Shown here in pieces: positions 10,747-25,735 of a stretch of 64,000 nt of DNA. The stretch's first letter is position 1, and each line of letters begins with the position of its first letter. The DNA lies in NCBI GenBank assembly GCA_963775535.1, contig CAVZJH010000053.1:19116-83115 (forward strand), given 5' to 3'. The position numbers were made by a program, and so were the translations under genes. Under the pieces are notes generated by a model. That model made no database searches and had not been told where the DNA came from. It was given only the letters and a program-made list of their open reading frames with translations. Source of the DNA: an uncultured bacterium (GTDB taxonomy: Bacteria; Armatimonadota; UBA5829).

Positions 10747-12055
10747 TCACGCGATGCGCGTTGCTCCTATTTGTCTTCCTGGTCCGGACCTTCTCATGGA
10801 GCTACCTTCGATAGCACTCGCCGATTTGGATGCCATATACACCCACTGGCTTTCCATAACAGCGCGGACCCCTTTTCTCCTTCTCCTTGCCCGGATCGGT
10901 TCCGCGATCTCATTGGCAGGTGCTGTGGCTATCAGCCTTTCCTCGTAGTAGACCCGCCAACTGCCATCTAGGAGTTGCCGCAGTTCGGCTTTTAGGCCGG
11001 CATAGCTTCTCTTGCCGGGTCCAGGTGGAATGTCTATGACGATCCCGTCGAAGCGTATCGCGTTATCGTTGCCCACGCGGGCCCCATACTCAAGGGAAAG
11101 AACGCGCTCCAGATCAAGTCCACGCCTGGGCTTTCTCCAAGCGCTCTGCGTATCCTGCGGTGCCACCGTAAACTTCTCGTTGAACTCCCGCACGAATATC
11201 TCGGCGTATGCGTTTGCTCCAGCAATATCTGTGATACCTTCCAAGCTCAACATCGCGCACAATCTGTCCTGGAGCGTCTTGGAGAGCCTTTCCACTCGAC
11301 CTTTTGCCTGTGGCGTTCCTCGGAAGATAGCCTCGATACTCAGAGATTCCAGCGCCGAGCCGACCTGTGTCGGGTCCTGGCGCCCAGCCAGTTCCTCTTC
11401 GATACTCCAGAAGTCGTCGTTGCGCTTGAGTGATGAGTGACGATCCTGGTAGACGCTCGCCGGAATGCCGTGGCTTGTCACGACACGACGCAGCAGTTCA
11501 AGATATGCCCACGAGCACTCCGCTTCCGTAAAGAACAGCCCCAAAACCTTGCCCGTGGCGTCATCCATGGCAGCCATCGCGCAGCACGCTTCCATACCAG
11601 GGCCAAACCACCGGTGGGGGCTGCCATCCCAGAGCATCATCAGTCCCTCGCTCACTTTCCTTGGCCTTCTCTTGTGATGCTTCCTCGGTCTGCGCTTCAT
11701 CTTAGGCTTAATCCCATCCCCGCGACGAATCCCACGAACCGTCTCCCGTGAAAGAGATATCCCCTCACGCTCCACGAGCATTTCGTGGAAATGACTGTCG
11801 TTGAACAGGCTATAGCGTTCTTCGAGAGGGCCAACACTTTCGAGCGCACTTCATCGCTGATCTTATTCCCGGACTACGGCCCCGGTTGCCGTGCAGCAGA
11901 CCCGCGACGCCATCGCCCTCAACCGACTTTCTAAGCCGCCTGGCCTGACGGTAGCTCACTCCCATCTTCTCTGCCGCCTCACTCAGAGCCACACGACCCT
12001 CCAATACCATCCGCAGCAAGTGATGCCGCGCTACATCTCGCTCACTAATCTCCAT
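10747..12055 (-). CDS. DDE transposase with N-terminal HTH, frameshifted ~11790-11860
   Basis: HGNRGR; WDGSPHRW; MDDATG; YQDRHS; PQAKGRVERL..TLQDRL. Confidence 0.92.
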
Positions 12056-12138
12056 GCCTCCATTCTACAGGAGGACATTATCGCACTGCAGTTAAGGAGG
12101 ACATAATCGCTATGCTACCACATCTTGATTTCCGCCTA

Positions 12139-12167
12139 TTGACAGACCTGCGAAAAGGAACTATAAT
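12139..12167 (+). promoter_or_regulatory. Consensus sigma70 promoter for the DRT2 ncRNA and RT
   Basis: TTGACA (12139-12144), 17-nt spacer, TATAAT (12162-12167). Confidence 0.9.
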
Positions 12168-12173
12168 CTTAGC

Positions 12174-12475
12174 GCTCTCTTGTTTAGCAGGGGAGGAGTG
12201 GCGTTCATGATGTCAACGACTACCTCCACAGCGGCAATCAACCGCAGTGCGATCCGTCCTGGCAGCAGAGCAGTTACCGCCAATACGGCGATGAGCTGCA
12301 CAGATTGCTCACTACTAGCATTGTAGCACATAGTGTTCATACGCGCTTCCGGTTACCGGAATAACGCGCCTTACAGCGTTTTGGCGTGTGCCGAAGAGGA
12401 CTAAAATGGGTTGACGCGATCCCGTGCCTCTTCGGCAGTGCTACATTTGGAGCCACCAGAGAGTAGGCGAGGCAC
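12174..12475 (+). ncRNA. DRT2 ncRNA (template region plus scaffold)
   Basis: ~300 nt between promoter and RT start. Hairpins at 12175-12195, 12192-12227 and 12342-12368. 11-bp stem 12389-12399/12427-12437. Long-range pairs 12322-12329/12438-12445 and 12198-12202/12452-12456. Confidence 0.85.
12209..12340 (-). other. neo: Predicted 132-nt cDNA repeat unit encoding a Neo-like 44-aa repeat (MNTMCYNASSEQSVQLIAVLAVTALLPGRIALRLIAAVEVVVDI)
   Basis: GTTCAT at 12203-12208 and 12335-12340, 132 nt apart. The antisense frame has no stops, and the junction rebuilds TTGACA-N17-TACAAT. Confidence 0.8.
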
Positions 12476-13861
12476 ATGACGGACGACCCTCCATGGTACA
12501 AACGCCGCCGATACAAGCACTTTGATAGGCCGATATCTGCCGGACGTGCCAGCGCATTGGTGTTAGATCCTGACAGCGTCAAACGTCATGGGTCATGCCA
12601 TTTCTCAGTGCCACTCTGGTTACACCACGTTACAGATCATCTCAGCACAAGAATAAGTCTAAGGTGAGGGATATAGCGTATGCTTCCCACCTCGACGCAA
12701 ATGTGTTCTCGTATTACAGTATGCTTCTTTCCATCTCATATGAGCGGGAGTTGGCTCGCCGTTCCATAGGTGATGTGGTACTGGCCTACCGAAAGCTTCC
12801 AGGAGGTAAATGCAATATTGATTTCGCAAAGGATACTTTCGAAGACATCATGCGAATAGGCGAGTGTAGTGTCCTTGTAAGTGATGTCGCCGATTTCTTC
12901 GGAAGTATCGATCACTCCCTCCTCAAGCATGCCTGGTCCAGGTTGTTGGGCAGGAATGAACTTCCTTCTGACCATTTCGCTGTTTTCAAAGCTGTCACGA
13001 AGTTTGCTCATGTGGATCAAGACACCGTGTATCGCCTTTTCAAGATCGGAAAGAGGCGTTCCAAGCAATATTGGGAACCTATCTGTACGGCAGCTGCCTT
13101 TCGTGAGGCGAAACGATCCCCCGAGTTCATACAAGTTAACGGGTCAGGTCGCGGCATTCCGCAGGGGTCGCCAATCAGTGCTCTCCTAGCAAATGTATAC
13201 ATGCTTGATGTCGATACGAGTATGGCTGAGCGGTGCGCAGAGATTGGAGGAGTCTACCGGAGATACAGCGACGAGTATTGCTACTGGTATGTCCAAACAA
13301 AACCCGTGCGGAACTTGAGGAGCTTCTTCGGTCGCAACTGGCTCGGGTTAAACTGGATTTAGCAGCAGGCAAATCTAAAGAGTCATTTTTCTCTTTTGAT
13401 GCCGATGGGTCCCTGCGTACAGATAAGCCAGTCCAGGTACTTGGGTTTCTTGTTCGACGGTCAGCGCATCTTGATCCGCTCTTCAACCATAGCGAAATAC
13501 CACGGGAGGATGCGCCGGGCGATATGCTCCGCTAATGCTGCAGCCCGTCAGAGTTGCCTCTCTGGAGGTGATCCGCGGAGATTCTCCCGCAAAATAATCC
13601 GCCAGTTCAGCGGATTGGGCCGTGCTAGAAAATTACCCCGGTTACGCAAAACGCGCTGCCAAAATCATGGCTGCACCTTCGATCGGAAGACAACACCGCA
13701 AGCACTGGCGAATGCTCAGTAAACTGCTGGACCAACCGGTGTGCAAAAAAGCCTGCGCTTTGTGCAAAGACCCCGATTTCACCAGCCTTTTCAATGAGTT
13801 GGGACATGGCGCAGTAGATGCCCGACACAATTTGTGTCCGTCCTATCCCAGCAATAAGTGA
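12476..13861 (+). CDS. drt2: Defence-associated reverse transcriptase, DRT2/UG2 type, split by ~4 frameshifts; 3' end approximate
   Basis: WYKRRRYKHFD, RDIAYASHLD, AYRK...GKCNIDFAK, DVADFFGSIDH, LP.DHFAVFK, GIPQGSPISA, YRRYSD(D). Confidence 0.88.
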
Positions 13862-13907
13862 CAGCCATAGTCCGGGCTCCTGCCCGGCCTTTCACATCAA
13901 TCCAGCC

Positions 13908-15838
13908 CTACTTCGCCTTCGCCCGTATATAATTCAGCCTTCCCCCGGCCAGCACAACTTCCCGTTCTCTTTCCGAGAGATCGTGCGTGACCTTCACCGT
14001 GACGTTCGCCGTCTTGTCCACCAGATCGAAGGTCGTTTCGCCGCGCTTGAGCGCATCGGCGATGTTCGGTATCTCGACATCGTCGAGCTGGTTGACCAGG
14101 TCGTAAGAGATTGCATCGACCAGCTTAAGCGGGAGAATCCCGAAGTTGACCAGGTTCTGGCGGTGGATTCTGGCGAAGGACTTCACGATTACAGCCTTCA
14201 CCCCCAGATACATCGGCGCGAGGGCCGCGTGTTCGCGTGAGGAGCCTGGCCGTAGTTCTCGCCGCCGAGGATCAACCCGCCGCCATACTGCTTTGCGCGG
14301 CTCGGGAACTCGGGGTCGACCGCCGTGAACACGTGCTCGGAGATCGCCGGAATGTTAGACCGTAGCGGAAGCACCTTGGAGCCCGCGGGCATAATGTGGT
14401 CCGTGGTTATGTTGTCGCCGACCTTAAGCAGGATCTTGCCCGAAATAGTCTCGGGAAGAGCCGTGTTCTCGGGAAGCGGCTTGATGTTCGGTCCGCGCAC
14501 GACCTCTACCGACTCCGGATCGTCGCTCGGCGGGATCACCATCCTGTCGTCCGTCAGGTATTTCTCCGGAGCGCCGTATGTGATCGGCTCACCGAGTTTC
14601 CTCGGGTCGGTGATGACGCCGTTTATCGCCGCGGCCACCGCGACCTCCGGCCCCGCGAGGTAGACCTGCGCGCTTTTGGTGCCGCTGCGGCCCTCGAAAT
14701 TGCGGTTGAATGTTCGGATGGAGACGGCGTTGGTCTTCGGCGACTGGCCCATGCCTATGCACGGACCGCACGCGGACTCGAGTATTCTTGCGCCCGCCGA
14801 AACCAGATCGGCAAGCGCGCCGTTTCTGGAGATCATCTCGAAAACCTGCCTGGACCCCGGAGAGATCACCAGGCTCACCGATGGATGCACGGTTTTTCCC
14901 TTCAGTGCTCCGGAGACGACCATCAGGTCCCTCAAGGATGAATTGGTGCAGCTTCCGATGGCGATCTGGTCGACTTTGGTTCCCTCGACCTCAGCGACTT
15001 TTACCACATTGTCCGGCGAGTGCGGCCTCGCGATCATCGGCGGCAGCTCGTTCAGATCGATCTCTATGACCTCGTCGTAATCGGCGTCAGGGTCGGCTCT
15101 GAGCTCTTTCCACTCGTTCTGGCGGTTCTGAGCGGCCATAAACTCCCCGGTCACCTGGTCGCTGGGGAAAATGGATGTCGTCGCTCCCAGTTCAGCGCCC
15201 ATGTTGGTTATGGTGGCCCTGTCGGTTGCGGAGAGGCTTGCGACACCCTCGCCGCCGTATTCTATGATCTTCCCCACGCCGCCCTTCACACTCAGTATCC
15301 GCAGCACCTCGAGGATAACGTCCTTCGCCGAGACCCACGGCTGCAGTTTGCCCGTCAGCTTTACCAGGCAGACTCTGGGCATAGGCATGTAGAACGGCTG
15401 GCCCGCCATCGCCGCCGCCACGTCCAGACCGCCCGCGCCGATCGCGAGCATGCCGAGGCCTCCCGCGGTGGGGGTGTGGCTGTCCGAACCCAGGAGGGTC
15501 TCTCCCGGGATATCGAACCTCTCGAGCTGGACCTGGTGGCAGATGCCGTTGCCCGGTCGAGAGAAGTAGATGCCGTGCTTCGCCGCCACACTCTGCAGAT
15601 AGGCATGGTCGTCAGCGTTCTCGAACCCTGTCTGGAGGGTATTGTGGTCGACATAGCTCACCGAGCGCCTGGTCTTCACCTTGGGCACGCCGATTGCCTC
15701 GAACTGCAGATACGCCATCGTGCCGGTCGCGTCCTGTGTGAGCGTGTGGTCGATCCGAATAGCGATCTCCTCGCCCGCAACCATATTTCCCTCTACCAGG
15801 TGGTCTTTGATTATCTTCTTTGCTATGCTCAGTCCCAT
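13908..15838 (-). CDS. Aconitate hydratase, frameshift ~14245
   Basis: QDATG, GNGICHQ, DSHT, IGSCTNSS, CGPCIG, NRNF, ITTDHIMPAG, KSFARIH. Confidence 0.95.
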
Positions 15839-16565: not shown

Positions 16566-19500
16566 TTATCGAGATGCATCCAGCACATATGCCCGAATGC
16601 GCCTCTTGTCTCCAGACAAGTCAGATGCTTGGTTTTCAAGGAATGTCCTCGCCTCTTCCATGCTCTTTATTTGAGCTCTGCTTGCGTTGCAGCCATTCCA
16701 GTCTGCGCTGCTAAACCAGCCGACAAGGTAGAGGCCGCACTGACACTTGTTCTCTTTCAGATATCGATTCACCAACTGGCTTTCCATCGCGGTGTAAAGT
16801 TCTTGGTGCCAGTTTCCCTTCACCTCAATAACCACGGATACGACCCTGTGATCTGCGGGCCCGTCCGAGGCACTGGTTCGGACGAGGATATCCGTCTGCT
16901 CGCCTGCACGCGAACCGTACCTGGGACGAATCTCGACCTCCCTGTTGAGAATGATCCCGCTCTTTTCCAGATCGCTCCTGAGGTGGTCTGCCACATAGTC
17001 TGAAAGCCGGTTCTCCTCTTTTGGTTTGCACTTTCCGTTGCCGAGGTCATCCCACACGCAGAATAGTTGAGGAGTCTCCCCGTGAAGTCGCTGCTCCAGG
17101 CGGGCGATAGATTCAATAACCACGTTGAGAAGTTGCTCTTCCGTTTGAACGAGCCGAACCCGAGAATTGCCCACGATCTGCAGCAGTTTCCCCGGCGTCG
17201 GCGGCATCCATGTCCGCTCCAGATTCGCTTTTCGCGCTTCAGTAAGCACATTCTCCATCCAGTCAAGTTCAGGCAGCGCATCCTTGATTTTCAAGACTGC
17301 CTCAACAGCTCCTATGCCTGCCAGGTAGCTGCTAACACTACCCTTCCACATATATCTCGCTTCAACCGGACCTACGGACCCGTAAAGAGCTATGTTGTGT
17401 TCATTCGGATAACAGCGCTCGATCCAGATGTAGAGATCAGCATAGTTGTCTGGTGTCATTTGAGCCGTAGCGACTTCGTTTCCCCAGTGTCTGGTCATTA
17501 CGAGCCCATTTACGACTAGCTTGCCGAACTCCTCATCCTTCTGGATCGCTGGCCACACTACGCTCCACCCTGCATCAGAGGAATACAGCATCAGGCTCTG
17601 CGCCGCAGCCACAGCTTTTTCCCTTTTGCCGGGATCGGAGATGTCGATCAATGATTCCGCGAATTGCTTTGCCGCGGGATGGTTGTGTCCCAATAGAACG
17701 GCGAGCAGTTTCTTGAGGCAATCCAATGGCAGGTCTTCTTCCATGCACTTCTCAGTCAATGCATGTGCAACGACATCGTCCCAAACAACTTCGGTGCTCC
17801 GCGCCACTGTACTATAGTGGGTCGCCGCGAGCATCGCGAGTGCACTCCTTACTTCATCGGGAACCCGGCGGTAGGCGCTGACGAGAAGCAATTTGGCAAC
17901 ATCCGTGTTGTCCAACTCGACCCCCGCCACTATTACAGGTGCCCAGCGGTGCCATAGCTCATCGGGAAGCTGAAGCAAGTGTTCAAGCCTCTCCTTGAAA
18001 AGCAGATGCAGAGCCCGATAGCCAGCGTAGGCCGGGCGATAGTTCAATATCCAGGTCGTAGGGAACCAATTATCCGCGTTTGGGTCAGTTCGGGCGATAT
18101 ACATTTCCGCCAATGCTGTAATGTTGCACCGAGTCTGCTCATCAGCATTTCGCCAGCCAGGAAGCTCGGTCAAGTCCCTATCACGGGATGATGATCCATC
18201 CTCGTTCAGTCCCAACACCCAGGTGATCTGCCACCACGCCGCCATCTTTCCATTCTTGCCGTCGCGGAGGGAACGCTTGAGCCGTCGTGAAGGTGACGGC
18301 CCTTTGCGCTCTTCTCGTGCGTACACTTTGGACGCCTCTACTTCTGCCTCATATGCATTCTGCATCTGTCGGGCCAGGTCTGAGTCGAGTTCTACCGATA
18401 GAGGCGGCCATGCGTACTCTCTGTCGAGAATGCCGTTGGCCCGGCGGGCTTCAAGAATGGCGTCCAAACCTTCGGGCGTCGCCAGGTTCGCCGTATGCAC
18501 TATCAGCTTTGCCAAGAATGTCTGCACAGCCTCATTGCCTTCGGATTCGAGATATGATATGAGCAGGGGAAGGTCCTGCGGCTTGATCAGTGGTCCATGA
18601 TAACGCGGTCCTGTAGGCTCGACGCCTTCTTCTATCGCGGCAGCGATCACGTCGGGCAGTATCTGCTGACGTTTGCTATCGTCCTCGGGTACATCGACGT
18701 TTTGGTACCGGTTCACTTCGCTCACCAAAGTGAGAGCAAGGCTTTTCGATACTCCCGGCGTTTCCAGATTGTTCCAAGCCTGCTCGATAAGTATGTCTCT
18801 AATCCTGTCAGACCAATAAGCCTTGTCCCTGGACGGCAGACTGCGAGCCCATTCCAACACTTTCGGTAAATCGGAAGGCTCAATACCTTTGAGGAAATTG
18901 AAGTGCAGGAATACCTGGTAAGCGCCGGTCAGGTGGGTATTCTTGGGCGGTGCAAGCACTGCAAGGAGTTCTTCCGTCGACACGCAATCCGGCCATATCG
19001 CTGCCAGGCAGGTTCCTATGATTTCGTCATCCGGGTCGTTCTCGATGTTGTTGGCTACAAAAGGTGCCAGTTTGTTTCTAACCTCACGTGGGCAGCTCAC
19101 CCTGATCGCGTCGGCGGCTCTGGCCCTCAGACGTGGTGGTTTGGTGGAGTCGAACACAATATCCAGCAAATCATCGGCGAGTGCATTAAGGCAGCAATCC
19201 GCCGCGATTTCGAGCGCAAGATATTTAGCGCCTTCGAAGGTCGCCTCGCTGCCCAAATACTCGCGGATGATGTTGCTCAGTCCATCGTGATCAAGTTCCT
19301 TGTAAGAATATGTGTCTCGCGGAAACGCCCCGCGCCGATTGTAGAGATCGAGGAGAGCATGTGTAAGAGCAGATTTGTCGGGGTCCGAGACATTTGTCAG
19401 ACCTACTAAGAGCAGGGCCTCGGGATCAGCTTTAAGGAGGAGTTCGAAATGCTCATGGTCCAACTCCGTAAACCACGCCGCAACGCCCCGCAGCTTTGGT

Positions 19501-20645
19501 ATAAGCGAACCTTTCGGGTGCAGGAGAAGGCTCTTGATCTGTTCGACGGGCACTTTGCGGTGGACCATGTACCACGCCGCCAGATACTCCGCGTAGGTCT
19601 GGTGACCCCAATATACGCTATCTCTGCCGTATCGGCGGAAAAGTCCGGTGTTGAGCGTATCTCGAACGGCTTTGCTCTTGACATCAAAACTACTATCATC
19701 GACCGATTCCGTGTCCCCGCAAATATCCTCAACCATTACGCAACCGTTATCGGGACAATGCACACTGTTGGAGCCGAGCCATATTGCTGACTTCGCTCCG
19801 AACATGGTGATTGCAGCTATGCGACCGGCCATTATTAACCGCTGGTCGCTGCTCATTTGTTCGTGAGCGCGCCGCGCGTCTGTGATCTCTTCACACAGGC
19901 GCAGCAGGCCATCGTGCATAAGCTCGACCTGACTGGAGGAGAAGCTCTTGTCTTTCTTATACTGCTTCAAAAGCATTGTCAGGGATAATGGCTTCGATGC
20001 CAGCACTCTGACGTTCTTGTCATCGATCTCCCGCAGGAATGCCTCCGGGTCAATTTCATTCATACGGGCAGCTTCTTCAACGTCTTTTTGCCGTAGCGGG
20101 GCCAGCCCGTATACCTGATATCCATCTCCCCAAGCAGCCTTTAGGACATCGTTCAAGCTCTTCGGCCAGTCCGCGATGCGGCACGCGATGCGCAAGCGCA
20201 GCCTGTCAACTGAATAGCGGCAAAGCTCAGTCTCAAGAATATTGGCCTTGCTATGGACATCCAAAGGTCCCTCGTCAAGACTGTCCAGGAACAGTTGAAG
20301 CACGTGATCCCCACTCACCCATCCCCGAAAGAGAGGGTTTTCGAAGATGCGCTCCTTCAGCATTATGTCGCTGACGATCCTGCCGGTGTCAATTGGCAGG
20401 CACACGGTATTCGCGGCCGCGTGTTCTTCTTCCCTAAAGACAGTTGATTTGCCGATACCCTGCTCTCCCAGTATCACTACACATGGGGCTTCAAAGAGCG
20501 CATCGGATGCCACCAACTCAGGATTATAGTAATGGCCGTACTCGGCGTCCGGGTCGGGCAGGAAGTCGCTCGGGAGGTTCAGTTTCTTATCGACGGGGTA
20601 GAAGAGCCGTTTCCAATTATACAGGGGCTGGTCTGAGGCCATCAC
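16566..20645 (-). CDS. STAND/NACHT-like NTPase with helical repeats and a C-terminal PD-(D/E)xK-like nuclease domain
   Basis: Walker A GEQGIGKS; Walker B LFLDSLDE; C-terminal EENRLSD...NREVEI...TDILV...IEVKGNW. Confidence 0.8.
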   Translation of the reverse strand: MMASDQPLYNWKRLFYPVDKKLNLPSDFLPDPDAEYGHYYNPELVASDALFEAPCVVILGEQGIGKSTVFREEEHAAANTVCLPIDTGRIVSDIMLKERIFENPLFRGWVSGDHVLQLFLDSLDEGPLDVHSKANILETELCRYSVDRLRLRIACRIADWPKSLNDVLKAAWGDGYQVYGLAPLRQKDVEEAARMNEIDPEAFLREIDDKNVRVLASKPLSLTMLLKQYKKDKSFSSSQVELMHDGLLRLCEEITDARRAHEQMSSDQRLIMAGRIAAITMFGAKSAIWLGSNSVHCPDNGCVMVEDICGDTESVDDSSFDVKSKAVRDTLNTGLFRRYGRDSVYWGHQTYAEYLAAWYMVHRKVPVEQIKSLLLHPKGSLIPKLRGVAAWFTELDHEHFELLLKADPEALLLVGLTNVSDPDKSALTHALLDLYNRRGAFPRDTYSYKELDHDGLSNIIREYLGSEATFEGAKYLALEIAADCCLNALADDLLDIVFDSTKPPRLRARAADAIRVSCPREVRNKLAPFVANNIENDPDDEIIGTCLAAIWPDCVSTEELLAVLAPPKNTHLTGAYQVFLHFNFLKGIEPSDLPKVLEWARSLPSRDKAYWSDRIRDILIEQAWNNLETPGVSKSLALTLVSEVNRYQNVDVPEDDSKRQQILPDVIAAAIEEGVEPTGPRYHGPLIKPQDLPLLISYLESEGNEAVQTFLAKLIVHTANLATPEGLDAILEARRANGILDREYAWPPLSVELDSDLARQMQNAYEAEVEASKVYAREERKGPSPSRRLKRSLRDGKNGKMAAWWQITWVLGLNEDGSSSRDRDLTELPGWRNADEQTRCNITALAEMYIARTDPNADNWFPTTWILNYRPAYAGYRALHLLFKERLEHLLQLPDELWHRWAPVIVAGVELDNTDVAKLLLVSAYRRVPDEVRSALAMLAATHYSTVARSTEVVWDDVVAHALTEKCMEEDLPLDCLKKLLAVLLGHNHPAAKQFAESLIDISDPGKREKAVAAAQSLMLYSSDAGWSVVWPAIQKDEEFGKLVVNGLVMTRHWGNEVATAQMTPDNYADLYIWIERCYPNEHNIALYGSVGPVEARYMWKGSVSSYLAGIGAVEAVLKIKDALPELDWMENVLTEARKANLERTWMPPTPGKLLQIVGNSRVRLVQTEEQLLNVVIESIARLEQRLHGETPQLFCVWDDLGNGKCKPKEENRLSDYVADHLRSDLEKSGIILNREVEIRPRYGSRAGEQTDILVRTSASDGPADHRVVSVVIEVKGNWHQELYTAMESQLVNRYLKENKCQCGLYLVGWFSSADWNGCNASRAQIKSMEEARTFLENQASDLSGDKRRIRAYVLDASR

Positions 20646-21835
20646 AGTTCCCCCGCAAACGCCCGATGCAGCAGCGACTCGAACAGTGCGCCCAACTTCT
20701 TTCTGCTTGCGGACTGCTGTTCTTGCATGGAACGCACTTCTTCTACACGGGCGGCGAACTCACGTTGCAGTTCTATGGGAGGCAAAGGAAATGGCATGTT
20801 TGCAAACCGTCCGGCCCCCAGGTGCGCTACGTTTGAGGTCTTGGAACTGATCCTGGCAAACTCGCCACGCCGAAAGTAATCGAGAAACACAGACAGTGCG
20901 AATACGGGTTCGACGAGACCGCTGTTTGCCTTAAAGCGAACGAGGGTGTTTTGAAAGCAGCAGTCCGCGACCTCTTCACGCCACATTGCCGGGCGACCCA
21001 CAAGCTCGGTGCTTTGACCTTCGTTCAGCAGTATGTCACCGTGCTCCAGTCGGTAGCCTCGGAAGTCCTTGTCGCCGAAGTCCATTGATAGAATGTCTGA
21101 TATATCTATTTCATCTTCAAAGACGTTTGCCACCCGAACATACGGTCGCGTGAATAGGCCCGTCTGGTATTTGGGCGCGCGCTGGCGGCCCAGTTGCACC
21201 GTGCCAGCTTTGGCAACGGTGACACCGGGCCATTGCGAGCCGCTGCCGATAACATCCCCAAACATATCGTGAAACACGGCGGGTATAAGATCGCCCGTGC
21301 GCTCATCTGCCTTCGCCCGCAGCTTTCGGAGTTCGTCGGCCTCGTCGAGGATGCGGACGACATGGTGCTGTTCGGGGAGGGGAAGCACTGCAATAGGAAC
21401 GCTCTTCACAGTCGAGTCGCTCACCGCAGGGTAATTGGCACCCGTGCACCGCGACACAAGGTAGTCCACGAAGAACGGGCAACGCACGTAATGGAACAGG
21501 AACGAACTCAGTAGGCGATCAGGGTCAGGACGCAGCACAGTGTATCCGGTTGAAGCGATTGATCCATCAAGATTGGGCGGCACGAGTGCAACCGCATTCA
21601 GGTTCGGCCTTACCGTCGACACAATCACGTCGCCAGCCTTTACTTTCTTGCGTGCCCGGCTCGGAGCATTCGTTCCTAAAAGGCTCTGTGGGTTCACTAT
21701 CAATTTGGAATCGCGGTCAACGGACGCGATATCGATGTAAATAAACTCATCGTTGTGGTAGGCAGCAGGATCACACTGCGAGGTAGGCACACATAGTTGC
21801 CCGAGCGGTACGGCCACCACGCCGGTCATTTGCAC
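20642..21835 (-). CDS. hsdS: Type I RM specificity subunit
   Basis: Two TRDs with conserved LPLPEQ..VV.IL and PLPPIELQREFA; SLLHRAFAGEL. Confidence 0.93.
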   Translation of the reverse strand: MQMTGVVAVPLGQLCVPTSQCDPAAYHNDEFIYIDIASVDRDSKLIVNPQSLLGTNAPSRARKKVKAGDVIVSTVRPNLNAVALVPPNLDGSIASTGYTVLRPDPDRLLSSFLFHYVRCPFFVDYLVSRCTGANYPAVSDSTVKSVPIAVLPLPEQHHVVRILDEADELRKLRAKADERTGDLIPAVFHDMFGDVIGSGSQWPGVTVAKAGTVQLGRQRAPKYQTGLFTRPYVRVANVFEDEIDISDILSMDFGDKDFRGYRLEHGDILLNEGQSTELVGRPAMWREEVADCCFQNTLVRFKANSGLVEPVFALSVFLDYFRRGEFARISSKTSNVAHLGAGRFANMPFPLPPIELQREFAARVEEVRSMQEQQSASRKKLGALFESLLHRAFAGEL

Positions 21836-23319
21836 ATCACCTTAGATAGGATCTCGGCTCTCTCTGAGATGTCCCGTTCCAGTGCAACAACTTCGTCAAG
21901 AATGCGCTGGGGGTCGTCGTGCGTTGTGGCTTCCGCCGTGACCATCCGATATCTCCCCGCCGTCAGGCTCACGTCTTCATTATCCCGAATCTTCTCAACC
22001 GGCACAACATAGCTGTTCGGTCCTTCTGCGCGGGCAGGCCACTTTGTCAGCACATCGGGGATATCGTTTTCTTCGATTGAGTTGCGTTTATCATCAAGAG
22101 AAAACCCATCAGCAGTAAGATCATAGAACCACACGCTTTGAGTGGCCTTGCCCTTCTCGAACACAAGCACGGCGGTGCCCACTCCAGAATATGGCTTGAA
22201 CGCGCCCGACGGCAAGTTTATTATTGCCTGCAGATCACATTCCGTCAGCAGTAGTTCCCGGCACTTCTTCGCCGCCTTCGTTGAGCCAAAAAGCACCCCA
22301 TTGGGCACAATCACGCCTGCCCTGCCGCCGGGCGCGAGGTGATCGATGAACCACTTCAGGAACAAAAGCTCGGTGTTGCGCGTGTTCAGGTTGATATCGG
22401 CAAGTATGCTCTCTTTCTGGATCTTGCCCGCGAACGGTGGATTGGCTAAGATCACATCAAACGTTAGGCCGGGATACAAGCTGCCCCTGGATTCGGTGAG
22501 CGGGTTGTGATACCGGATAGCCGCTTTCTCAAGTTGGTGGAGGTAGAGATTGAGGATGGCTATCTTTACCATATTTGCATCATTGTCGTAGCCAGTGAAG
22601 CCCTGCTCCGAAAGGAACTTCCAGTCTGCTGGTTTGAGCAGATCACCCGTCACTCGCCCATGCGCCAGTTCGGCCTTTGATGTGTTCCGGCTCTTGATAT
22701 GATTGAAAGCCGACACAAGGAAACCGGCTGTGCCGCAGGCCGGGTCGCATATCCGCTGGCCAGGCTTCGGATCAACAAGCGCCACTATCATATCTATTAT
22801 GTGCCTGGGTGTTCGGAACTGGCCGTTTGTGCCGGACTGAGAGAGCTTGCTGAGGAGATATTCATACATATCACCCTTCAGGTCGGCTCCTTCTGGCTCC
22901 TCAAGTTCCATGGCCTGTATGCCTTGCACAACCGCGCGAAGAGTTGGGCGGTCGTATATCTTAAGCGTAGCCCGGTCGAAGAGCAGCCTTCCCGTCTGCG
23001 ACAAGCCCGGCAGTTCGTGCAGCTTCTCGATGGCTGCGCGGCCTGCATCGAAGAGCTGGTCACCAGTAAGGGTAACGAAGTTTCCCCAGGCGTATCGCGC
23101 CCATTCGCCGGCGAAGATGCGGTTGTAGTTCCTGTCGATGGAGGCAAGAAGCTCGTCGCGTTCGCTCAACAACCGCAGGAATAATAGGTAAGATATCTGT
23201 TCTATGGAGTCCATCGGGTTGTTGACACCGCCGGCATACAGAACATCCATAAGCTGGTCGACTTTCTGCCGCACACCCGATGAAAAGAAGTTACTTCCGT
23301 TATTACCGTTTCCGTTCAT
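21826..23319 (-). CDS. hsdM: Type I RM N6-adenine methyltransferase
   Basis: GQFRTPRH, DPACGTAGFL, NPPF. Confidence 0.95.
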   Translation of the reverse strand: MNGNGNNGSNFFSSGVRQKVDQLMDVLYAGGVNNPMDSIEQISYLLFLRLLSERDELLASIDRNYNRIFAGEWARYAWGNFVTLTGDQLFDAGRAAIEKLHELPGLSQTGRLLFDRATLKIYDRPTLRAVVQGIQAMELEEPEGADLKGDMYEYLLSKLSQSGTNGQFRTPRHIIDMIVALVDPKPGQRICDPACGTAGFLVSAFNHIKSRNTSKAELAHGRVTGDLLKPADWKFLSEQGFTGYDNDANMVKIAILNLYLHQLEKAAIRYHNPLTESRGSLYPGLTFDVILANPPFAGKIQKESILADINLNTRNTELLFLKWFIDHLAPGGRAGVIVPNGVLFGSTKAAKKCRELLLTECDLQAIINLPSGAFKPYSGVGTAVLVFEKGKATQSVWFYDLTADGFSLDDKRNSIEENDIPDVLTKWPARAEGPNSYVVPVEKIRDNEDVSLTAGRYRMVTAEATTHDDPQRILDEVVALERDISERAEILSKVMCK

Positions 23320-25735
23320 TACTCACCAAATCCCAGTGCGGATTGCCTAATGAGCGGCGACTGCCGCAGTGCCTCGAATGCGGGTTCCCGTTCCGCAAAT
23401 CTTGCGAGAGCATCCAAACCGCCCAGCGGTATAAACTGGCCCGCCGTGAACACAGTCATATCTCCCGACAGGAACCGCCTCAGGGCAGCGGGATCATCGG
23501 CAATGAGTTGGGCGGTGGCGCTTAGGAGCTTCTGCTCATTATAGCGCAGGTTGAAGCGCGCGGCTATGGATTCGACAGTATCGTTTACAAGCTTGTCCTT
23601 GGTCGGCAGCGGCTTCCCGCCAACGGCATTATAAACGAACGCCGGTGTCGGAGCGGGCACCCCGTACAGACTTAATCAGCTTGTCGGGAGAGTAGAACAT
23701 CTCAGGCTTATAGAAGAAACGCTCAGTAAGGATTGTCTCAACTGCGTCGTCATCCTCCACCTCAATAGCAATTCTTAGCTGTTCGTCTTGCTGCGCCATT
23801 TCCTTCACGTCCCGCTCGAACGAGCCCCGGAACGTCATTACGTCCACCTTCTCGCCGTTTGGCCCTATAATCCGCACATCCTCCGAGACTACCACATCAT
23901 GGCCTTCCCAGACGGGGATGCCTTGTGGTGAAGGATATGGAGGCTCAGGGCCGGGCGGTGGCTCGGGCCCGGGAGGCTCCGGCCCGGGCCTCGGAGGTTC
24001 GGGCAGTTCAGTCTTTGGTCTCGGCAGTTCAAGTGGCAGGCTGTAATCGTATTGCTCCTCGAAATACTCGGCCACGCCGCAGAAATCCATCAGCAAGAAG
24101 TGCTTCTTCTCATACTCCGTGTTGCCTATGCGGAAGGTGAACGTCCTCGTGCCACGTCCCTTGATCTGGATATACTCGGTTGGTGAGAATATCGGGCGCA
24201 TCAGCACTACGTTCAGCAGATCGCGGCAGTTGTAGCCGGTTGAAGAGCATGTCCACAGAGACAGCAATCTGCTCACGCCGCTTTCCATCCCTGAAGTCCT
24301 TGGCAATGTCCGAAGAGCCGGGCACGCGCGAGGTGATGGTGACCGCGCTGCCCGGCTGGATTGAGTTCAGCGTCCTCGTCAGGTTGGTAGCGTGGTTTTG
24401 ATTGACTGCGAAGATGATGGATTTGCCGAGCTTCCCAAACGGGTCGCGCTGCGCATTCTCCAGGAACGCCTCGCACATGACCTGGTTTCTATACGGAGTG
24501 AATATACGCCGTTCCAAGTCGCGAATCTTATAGCTCTCTTCCTGCTCATTAATGGTAACCGTCCATCCCTTTTCTTCAAGAGCCTGCGTGGTGATGTCGG
24601 TGCGAATGTCGAATATCTTGGGCATACAAAGGAACGGCCCCTCGGGATCTTGGACGGCATCTATTATGTCATAGCGGAACGTGGGAATTCCGGGCTCGCA
24701 GCCAAAGTAATGATAGGTATCCCGCAGTTGGCGAGCCTCCAGAGCTCTTGGGTTCTCCCGGCCCAGCGAGTCAAGATCGATGTTCCTGAGATACGCCTTT
24801 GGGGTTGCCGTGAGACCGACCCGCGTCGCCTGGAAATACTGCACGACTTCACGAGCATCTCCGTAGATAGACCTGTGTGCCTCATCGTTTATGACAAGGT
24901 CGAAGTAGAACGGAGTAAACTCCTCTCGGTAGCGGCGGTCGATCTGCAGAGACTGGATGGTTGCAACAACGACCGACGAGCCCAGCATATCCATCGGCCT
25001 GCGCCGCGCCGTCTTATAAATGACCGGGCTATATTCCCGCAGAATGACGCCGAAATCTTCGATAGTCTGCTTAGCCAGTTCTATACGGTCGACGATGAAC
25101 AGCACCCGTTCGGCATTGCGGGTGGCAAGGAAACGCCGTATAAGAGCTGCGCACAGCTTTGTTTTGCCGGTGCCGGTTGCCATCTCCAACAGGAACTTGC
25201 GTTTTCCGTCGGCATCGAACTGCCTCGATATCTCTTCTATCGCACGGATCTGATAACCGTGGAGACTGATTTCAGGCTGGAAGCGCTGAATATAGTCCGG
25301 CCCGAGGGGTTCGGTGAGAAGCGGCCTGGGCGGCTGCATGTTCTTGAGCCGAAGCCGTTCCAAGTCCTGAGGCGATGGAATGCGTTCAATGCGATAAGCG
25401 TCCTGCTGATCCGTTCGTGTATAGTTCCAGAACCAGTGTTCGGTGCCATTTGAGAGTATGATAAATGGAGCGCCGACATTCTCGGCATAACCTCGCGCCT
25501 GTTCCTTTGCATCGTAGGGTTCATAATCGGGCTTCTTCGCTTCCAGAACACACAAGGGCCCGAACTGACCGTTCAGCACGTAGTCCGCGCGACCGCTGAG
25601 GCCGTGAAGCTCGAACCTCACCTGATGGGAATCAAGCAGGTTCCATCCGCTGTCTTTGAGACACTGGTCTATGATGACTCTGGAAAAGGCTTCGCCTTGA
25701 TGCATGATCGTGATCCGTCTGCCGTGTGTGAGCAT
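23319..25735 (-). CDS. hsdR: Type I RM restriction subunit, frameshifted ~24240 and ~23660
   Basis: ADY..LEAKK nuclease motif, MATGTGKT, DEAHRS, LTATP, QIKGRGTR; three consecutive ORF fragments. Confidence 0.9.

Follow-up and report, generated by a model that had tools for sequence, protein, structure and literature searches.

A probable non-coding RNA of DRT2 type with a predicted GUUCAU jump repeat and an RT-12-like scaffold upstream of an interrupted reverse transcriptase gene in an uncultured Armatimonadota bacterium

What is encoded by the 302 nucleotides that lie between a strong promoter and the interrupted reverse transcriptase (RT) gene of an uncultured bacterium of the Armatimonadota? 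The stretch of DNA analysed, hereafter the window, is 64,000 nucleotides long (assembly GCA_963775535.1, contig CAVZJH010000053.1), and the region in question occupies positions 12174-12475 of its + strand. An earlier note, made from the letters alone, had placed there a non-coding RNA (ncRNA) whose helices would bracket a template, hold its ends together, partly as a pseudoknot, and set the start and stop points of the RT. The answer we propose, with a probability of about 85%, is that 12174-12475 encodes the non-coding partner of the RT in an anti-phage system of the DRT2 (UG2) kind, an RNA built like that of KpnDRT2, which is the closest known system (Tang et al. 2024, bioRxiv 10.1101/2024.05.08.593200; Wilkinson et al. 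2024, PMC12039810; PDB 9C0I and 9C0J). It belongs to an already known kind of element; what marks its clade is a scaffold resembling RT-12 together with a predicted jump repeat of GU type.

The family of the locus is given by its protein. Directly downstream of the RNA, PADLOC Drt2 profiles match all five frame pieces of the RT open reading frames at 12476-13861 (+), with E-values of 2.2e-88, 8.1e-09, 4.1e-06, 1e-11 and 3.4e-06, the first of these belonging to the piece 12574-13359; retron and other RT models reach only about 1e-9 to 1e-13, and Pfam returns a weak RVT_1 match and nothing more. When aligned to the intact RT of a relative, L082 (419 residues), the gene is read in frames +2/+1/+3/+1/+2, with four frame breaks, one of which falls inside the catalytic YSDD box; as assembled, it cannot be translated whole. 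The L082 protein in turn matches the KpnDRT2 chain 9C0I_A over residues 8-411 with an E-value of 6.6e-91. Because the RT pieces match Drt2 and the RT of L082 matches KpnDRT2, 12174-12475 is read as the upstream non-coding region of a DRT2 defence locus. Chain A of the 9C0I entry bears the title "Antiviral reverse transcriptase Drt2".

An RT tree of 131 tips, from which 7 of the 138 matches (shorter than 180 residues), the duplicates L132, L133, L137 and L138, and L143-L160 were left out, unites the window, L082, L134, L135, L136 and L139, all bearing the type of tower described below, in an exclusive clade of six (support 0.70). DRT2 is sporadic around them: it was found in 2 of 61 relatives, in 2 of 53 genomes of the class and in 5 of 401 genomes sampled from the phylum, with 1 of 7 genomes in the class of G104 and 1 of 71 in that of G332. 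The class and phylum searches added only L134-L136 to the clade; L139 came from a viral scan, and a plasmid search contributed L163-L166.

The limits of the predicted RNA (12174-12475, +) are those of the earlier note, and its prediction rests on the adjacency of the RT, the fold and the promoter. A sigma-70 promoter, TTGACA-17 nt-TATAAT, stands at 12139-12167 (+) and matches the consensus at 12 of 12 positions; the start that it predicts, near 12174, agrees with the 5' end that had been assumed, and promoter-like hexamers occur at the equivalent place in relatives. The ncRNA may also be co-transcribed with the RT. The region is present once in the genome, and the whole 302-nt RNA folds better than 100 of 100 shuffles (z = -2.74). 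Its 5' end carries a handle hairpin, CUCUCUUGU-UUA-GCAGGGGAG (12175-12195, +), which appears in the MFE fold with a mean pair probability of 0.54. A hairpin of other sequence occupies the handle position in L082, L134, L135 and L136, and one is present in 5/5 clade members with a full 5' region.

Behind the handle lies the template unit (12203-12334, +), which runs from a first GTTCAT up to a second and measures 132 nt, or 44 codons. The two copies of this 6-nt repeat, 132 nt apart at the template ends, differ from the ACA of KpnDRT2, and the jumping assigned to them is a prediction: copy 1 (12203-12208, +) would be the end point of each round, its complement ATGAAC supplying the ATG of the repeat ORF, and copy 2 (12335-12340, +) would be the site at which the nascent cDNA end re-anneals. 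Within the template stand the complement of a -35 box, TGTCAA (12211-12216, +), and that of a -10 box, ATTGTA (12320-12325, +; TACAAT on the other strand), and the junction between two repeats brings TTGACA and TACAAT exactly 17 nt apart. In tandem copies of the template, one of the three cDNA-sense frames is free of stops (frame 0, checked over six repeats) and encodes a hydrophobic unit of 44 residues (mean Kyte-Doolittle 1.10) beginning at the ATG of the GTTCAT complement; the genomic image of this repeat ORF, MNTMCYNASS...VVVDIMN..., translates from 12161-12340 (-). The RNA-sense frame 0 of the repeated template 12203-12334 (+) is likewise stop-free, both in the window and in L082, and is probably a by-product of the antisense ORF.

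The logic described for DRT2 combines a concatemeric cDNA, a promoter formed at the junction and a never-ending ORF (PMC12039810; bioRxiv 10.1101/2024.05.08.593200). It holds for the templates of two relatives: the unit of L082 measures 144 nt, is joined at GTT and has GTTCAC at the position of copy 1, giving a GTG start, and that of L135 measures 108 nt. The units of L134 (59 nt) and L136 (97 nt) have no open frame as they stand, and at the position of copy 2 the relatives have GT or GTT in common. On the minus strand of the L134 locus, GTTC repeats lie 59 nt apart, and an endless frame of 20 codons appears only with one extra base per round. One extra base per round has been reported for KpnDRT2. 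On the minus strand of the L136 locus, GGGTT repeats lie 97 nt apart, with stops in every frame.

In a wider sample, 65 of 130 oriented DRT2 loci passed a strict junction filter. It required complements of a -35 and a -10 box, a junction spacing of 17 nt, a unit length divisible by 3, an open frame, and one and the same dinucleotide at two places, 8 nt ahead of the -35 complement and 9 nt behind the -10 complement. In most of the loci that passed, the letters common to both sides of the junction are GT or CGT, where KpnDRT2 has ACA. Many of L001-L131, for example L006, L014 and L091, show a GT/CGT register of this kind, with these distances of 8 nt and 9 nt to the two complements.

Downstream of the template, the RNA continues into a 3' scaffold. 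The small hairpin TTCCGG-TTA-CCGGAA (12347-12361, +) has the position of the KpnDRT2 'buttress' and a mean pair probability of 0.87 (12347-52 with 12356-61); its counterpart in L082, CTTCTGG...CAGAAG, shows one C:G to U:A exchange, and a hairpin stands at or right after the junction motif in all five full-length members of the clade. The hairpin drawn here in the earlier note was longer (12342-12368, CGCG...CGCG around the same stem): its inner stem holds and recurs in L082, whereas its outer CGCG:CGCG pairing (12342-45 with 12365-68) has a probability of 0.0 and no L082 counterpart. A second small hairpin, with a conserved ACAGC (12364-12389, +), can be drawn in two alternative registers, either ACGCGCC:GGCGTGT (12364-70 with 12383-89; ensemble probability 0.95) or, following the alignment to the RT-12 model, ACGC:GCGT (12364-67 with 12376-79). 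The counterpart of the first register in L082, CAATGTC:GGCGTTG (probability 0.72), covaries.

The long hairpin of the scaffold, or 'tower' (12389-12437, +), consists of an 11-bp stem (12389-99 with 12427-37), an internal loop and an apical hairpin (12408-10 with 12421-23). The stem had been picked out already in the earlier note, and it is perfect and conserved. A covariance model built from relatives (R2) matches the tower of the window at 19.4 bits (E 6e-4 in 21.7 kb). On the alignment A9, which has five sequences only and is fitted to the model, 92.3% of the tower cells pair and both sides have changed in 9 of 13 pairs overall and in 8 of the 9 aligned pairs of the lower stem; none of 500 column shuffles reached these values, and sliding the partner strand by 1-3 columns lowers the pairing to 31-66%. 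From these compensatory changes, the 11-bp stem is read as a real and conserved structure, the counterpart of the KpnDRT2 "tower". Other searches had a shorter reach: a model from three sequences (R1) was too narrow and missed the window and L139 at E <= 1, R2 itself gave only 6.1 bits on the true tower of L139, and nhmmer with a profile of the window and L082 matched, among 131 loci, these two only. When plain MAFFT was applied to the handle and to the full RNAs of the window and L082, the structural registers of the alignments were poor.

The apical loop of the tower would close a pseudoknot with a strand that follows the template. In the window, the 5' strand is the CGCG at 12342-12345 (+) and the 3' strand the CGCG of the apical loop at 12415-12418 (+); the isolated duplex is worth -6.3 kcal/mol. 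In the relatives too, the apical loop of the tower can pair with a stretch that begins shortly past the junction motif: CTTGCGG with CCGCAAG in L082, CTTGTGG with CCGCAAG in L134, GCGGCGA with TTGCCGC in L139, GCGGC with GCCGC in L165 and, read by eye, GGCGG with CCGCC in L135. Other clades offer, among more examples, AACGCAC/GTGCGTT, GGGCAC/GTGCCC, TCGTGCA/TGCACGG and GGATAGC/GCTATCC. This pairing was put to an anchored own-versus-swapped test, for which the 130 oriented loci were reduced to the 65 that passed the junction filter, to 64 with a recognisable tower and to 45 distinct ones. The mean helix score was 16.24 for a locus's own strands versus 12.51 for swapped strands, and 0 of 5000 permutations reached the own-locus mean, a figure to be read in the light of the kinship among loci, which inflates such a test. 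The position is constant, 5-12 nt past the junction, while the sequences that pair there are of at least 12 different kinds. The pseudoknot of the window itself, with four G-C pairs and a score of 12, is the third lowest of the 45, and its partner is ambiguous because CGCG occurs three times; a shuffle test run locus by locus, which is insensitive, gave p <= 0.05 in 9 of 119 loci only and p = 0.995 for the window.

The earlier note had sought the pseudoknot in its own long-range helices. The two would be nested, and the pairing that covaries joins 12342-45 to 12415-18, thereby using a CGCG that had been assigned to the outer stem of a hairpin. The pseudoknot seen by cryo-EM in KpnDRT2 is reported to involve the 3' hairpin (bioRxiv 10.64898/2026.09.22.753630), and to adjoin the template, ahead of linker and buttress (Wilkinson et al., PMC12039810); for this reason, the covarying pseudoknot is read as the known pseudoknot of DRT2. 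A basal stem that would join the 5' flank to the final 9 bases of the template finds weak support across the family (10.31 vs 9.75, reached by 1.7% of permutations) and is reduced to GTG:CAC in the window.

The remaining helices of that note were compared with chance. All five complementarities that it had listed are present where it placed them. Among perfect complements of 5 bp, 50 are observed and a mean of 44.3 is found in 1000 dinucleotide shuffles of the 302 nt; since 24.9% of the shuffles reach 50, GTGGC/GCCAC (12198-202 with 12452-56) and GGAGG/CCTCC (12192-96 with 12223-27) stand at chance level. The former has a pair probability of 0.02. The latter does enclose the -35 complement TGTCAA (12211-16), as had been claimed, but the hairpin 12192-12227 that it closes (probability 0.40) uses G12192-95 of the conserved handle (0.54), and L082 is without the CCUC partner. 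The 8-bp pair of TGTAGCAC (12322-29) and GTGCTACA (12438-45) is a perfect match, thermodynamically strong and peculiar to the window, that is not significant alone, because a perfect complement of 8 bp turns up at least once in 40.3% of the shuffles; of the five 8-mer matches observed, four come from the 11-bp stem. The duplex of tail and template gave p = 0.079 in the window and 0.15-0.50 in four relatives (Fisher 0.21), and among 44 distinct loci a mean of 9.61 for own versus 9.21 for swapped strands, a value reached by 5.4% of permutations, the window scoring highest (20). Pairing of the tail with the scaffold linker gave no signal (11.73 vs 11.57; 28.6% of permutations reach the own value). 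Comparative support among the five noted helices is therefore confined to the 11-bp stem and the inner hairpin, and the long-range clamp of the template ends to the 3' tail is unsupported. The general idea of helices that bracket the template, join its ends and include a pseudoknot agrees with the published KpnDRT2 structure; most of the specific wiring lacks support.

The 3' tail is peculiar to a part of the clade. It extends 39 nt past the tower in the window and 26 nt in L082, the only comparable one; in L134, L135, L136 and L139 the RT start codon comes just 10-14 nt past the tower. For the tail segment GTGCTACA (12438-12445, +), two candidate partners can be named, the template segment TGTAGCAC of the earlier note and TGGCGT (12382-87), with which the RT-12 alignment would pair GTGCTA (12438-43) as an outer helix. 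In the naked-RNA ensemble, TGGCGT is engaged in the hairpin with 12364-70 (0.95) and the outer helix of RT-12 type has a probability of 0. The Shine-Dalgarno region of the RT is itself complementary to the 3' strand of the tower (12424-12430 with 12469-12475, 7 perfect pairs), as is, over 6 pairs, GCGAGG before the RT start of L082; the probability of this pairing in the naked-RNA ensemble is 0, and it could represent an alternative fold that couples RNA folding to RT translation.

How, then, should the tail and the state of the locus be understood? If the wiring of the earlier note were right, GTGGC:GCCAC and TGTAGCAC:GTGCTACA would clamp the template ends to the tail, and the hairpins 12342-68 and 12192-12227 would set start and stop. 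Every one of these pairings exists in the sequence, the 8-bp helix has a probability of 0.97 in the naked-RNA ensemble and belongs to the MFE fold, it is the top scorer of the 44 loci in the tail-versus-template test, and at the corresponding position of L082 a helix UUAUAG:CUAUAG is possible, in which one G:C has been exchanged for A:U. We nevertheless consider this wiring unlikely, given the negligible probabilities of GTGGC:GCCAC and of the outer CGCG stem, the overlap of the hairpin 12192-27 with the handle and its absence from L082, the results of the tail:template tests in the window and family-wide, a probability of 0.001 for the L082 equivalent, and the fact that 4 of 5 relatives are without such a tail. 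The same 8-bp duplex might instead be a self-priming device. KpnDRT2 provides a precedent, in which the ncRNA's 3' end is the primer and receives a DNA pentamer templated by bases 142-146 at the template 3' end, while during elongation the bases of the 3' end are paired to the scaffold linker instead (PMC12039810); the 8-bp site of the window lies 5-12 nt from the template 3' end, and GTGCTA has, by homology with the outer helix of RT-12, a second partner. In the sub-branch of the window and L082, the extra tail would then fix the first cDNA start and shift to its scaffold partner during elongation. Both the device and this two-step use of the tail are unlikely in our eyes, since the comparative tests lend no support to the tail:template pairing, priming in KpnDRT2 proceeds without an RNA:RNA duplex, and the second partner has a probability of 0 in the naked-RNA ensemble.

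A retron-type msr/msd, or the RNA of some other RT system, would also lie upstream of an RT, and Weinberg et al. 2017 made a guess of this kind for such RNAs (PMC5737381); this identity was rejected on the RT profile, where Drt2 reaches 2.2e-88 and the retron RT models about 1e-9, and we regard it as highly improbable, the logic of template, junction promoter and ORF being specific to DRT2. More probable, though somewhat less likely than not, is the possibility that the locus is a decaying relic of a DRT2 system, a reading compatible with the DRT2 identity, in which the RT would be a pseudogene, the RNA would no longer work and the helices specific to the window would drift. The RT is broken four times; the locus may be defunct, and selection may have ceased to act on its helices. 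In favour of decay, there are four frame breaks in 1.4 kb, one of them in the catalytic box, the pseudoknot of the window is among the weakest of the 45, DRT2 is as sporadic in the phylum as reported above (5/401), and an ISNCY transposase adjoins the locus. Yet both neighbours are frame-broken too, including an aconitate hydratase, the promoter is a perfect consensus and every RT piece still aligns well. The transposase is split into 10747-11781 and 11810-12055, and the aconitate hydratase into 14198-15838 (profile positions 1-536 of 647) and 13908-14213 (positions 548-645), giving one break in the transposase, four in the RT and one in the hydratase, all within 2.4 kb (11780-14215). Long ORFs elsewhere in the window are intact, and five other adjacent ORF pairs of the window, of which three have family matches, gave no sign of splitting. 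The cluster possibly reflects a local assembly fault or real decay, and with the six breaks confined to 11.8-14.2 kb the former fits at least equally well.

Restriction-modification and MADS-like genes at 20.6-23.3 kb of the window make this a defence neighbourhood, and the interval 16566-23322 (-) forms a defence island adjoining the DRT2 locus. The same interval holds an ORF of 1398 codons with no clear family, beside type I restriction-modification or MADS-like specificity and methyltransferase genes.

The scaffold also connects the locus to RNA motifs described before. Rfam RT-12 (RF03016) aligns end to end on 12324-12444, just upstream of the RT start at 12476, with 22.6 bits, below the gathering score of 44.2; judged by this alignment, the 3' scaffold of the window is a divergent relative of RT-12. 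In three other loci, RT-12 lies directly upstream of drt2: in L139, a viral contig, with 97.4 bits (L139:133-256), and, upstream of an annotated drt2, in L165, a plasmid of Photobacterium damselae, with 72.9 bits (L165:470-582), and in L166, a plasmid of Nitratidesulfovibrio vulgaris DP4, with 43.6 bits (L166:436-561). A second motif, RT-6 (RF03027), matches the handle and the template start, including the -35 complement, in L070 (66.3 bits, 2046-2119) and L141 (35.2 bits, 1186-1257). RT-12 and RT-6 are parts of DRT2 ncRNAs, the former the 3' scaffold and the latter the 5' handle with the template start. RT-12 gave no match at E <= 1 in four clade relatives of the window, none in two Calothrix loci, and, in the search of five genomes carrying this RT clade with RF03016, only the sub-threshold match of the window. 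Our literature search found no paper naming RT-12 together with DRT2 and none naming RF03016; in Weinberg et al. 2017, the RT motifs were left unassigned and were guessed to be possibly retrons (PMC5737381).

Set beside KpnDRT2, the window shares an ncRNA upstream of the DRT2 RT with its own promoter, a 5' handle hairpin, a predicted template between short direct repeats, a unit length divisible by 3 and an antisense frame free of stops, -35 and -10 boxes joined at 17 nt over the repeat junction, and a 3' scaffold in which a small and a long hairpin accompany a pseudoknot strand that adjoins the template. It differs in its repeat, GUUCAU (6 nt) instead of ACA, in a junction that divides the 17-nt spacer into 8 and 9, against about 6 and 11, in a unit of 132 nt, against 120, that needs no extra base, in a tower of 49 nt against 34, in its 39-nt 3' tail, in having a single base between the pseudoknot strand and the small hairpin, and in the broken frame of its RT. 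With RT-12 it shares the order of a conserved strand, two small hairpins and a long hairpin with internal loop and apical hairpin, whereas its outer helix is doubtful and its apical loop reads GACGCGA where RT-12 has GCCGCaa. In concept, a repeatedly copied template, flanked by a boundary stem on its 5' side and a pseudoknot on its 3' side, recalls telomerase RNA, a comparison found in PMC12039810; the template of the window is far longer, its fold is unrelated and its product would be protein-coding.

The model we propose for the locus attributes expression, cDNA synthesis, jumping, Neo production and defence to it by homology with KpnDRT2. From its own strong promoter, an RNA would be made that contains the handle hairpin, the 132-nt template between the GUUCAU repeats and the 3' scaffold, the latter consisting of the pseudoknot strand after the template, the two small hairpins and the tower whose apical loop would close the pseudoknot. 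On the pattern of KpnDRT2, handle and scaffold would both be bound by the RT, which would reverse-transcribe the template. On arrival at the first GUUCAU, the 3' end of the nascent strand (ATGAAC) would jump to the second GUUCAU, and the product of such rounds would be a cDNA of tandem 132-bp repeats. Second-strand synthesis would then create the junction promoter TTGACA-17-TACAAT and an endless ORF of 44 hydrophobic codons per unit, starting from the ATG of the repeat.

In conclusion, DRT2 is among the strangest known immune mechanisms, in which a gene is written from a non-coding RNA via rolling-circle reverse transcription. For the divergent clades of DRT2, Tang et al. describe the RNA as predictable and the hidden gene as hard to annotate (bioRxiv 10.1101/2024.05.08.593200). 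The window and its relatives make the same logic of template, junction and frame readable in such a divergent clade, with a jump motif of GU type and a different junction register. Two orphan Rfam motifs, RT-12 and RT-6, are now tied to DRT2 RNAs, and in many clades there is covariation in the pseudoknot that links the strand behind the template to the loop of the tower. If the unlikely reading of the tail were true, tail priming would be a base-paired version of the protein-held self-priming of KpnDRT2, combined with a 6-nt jump repeat that carries the start codon.
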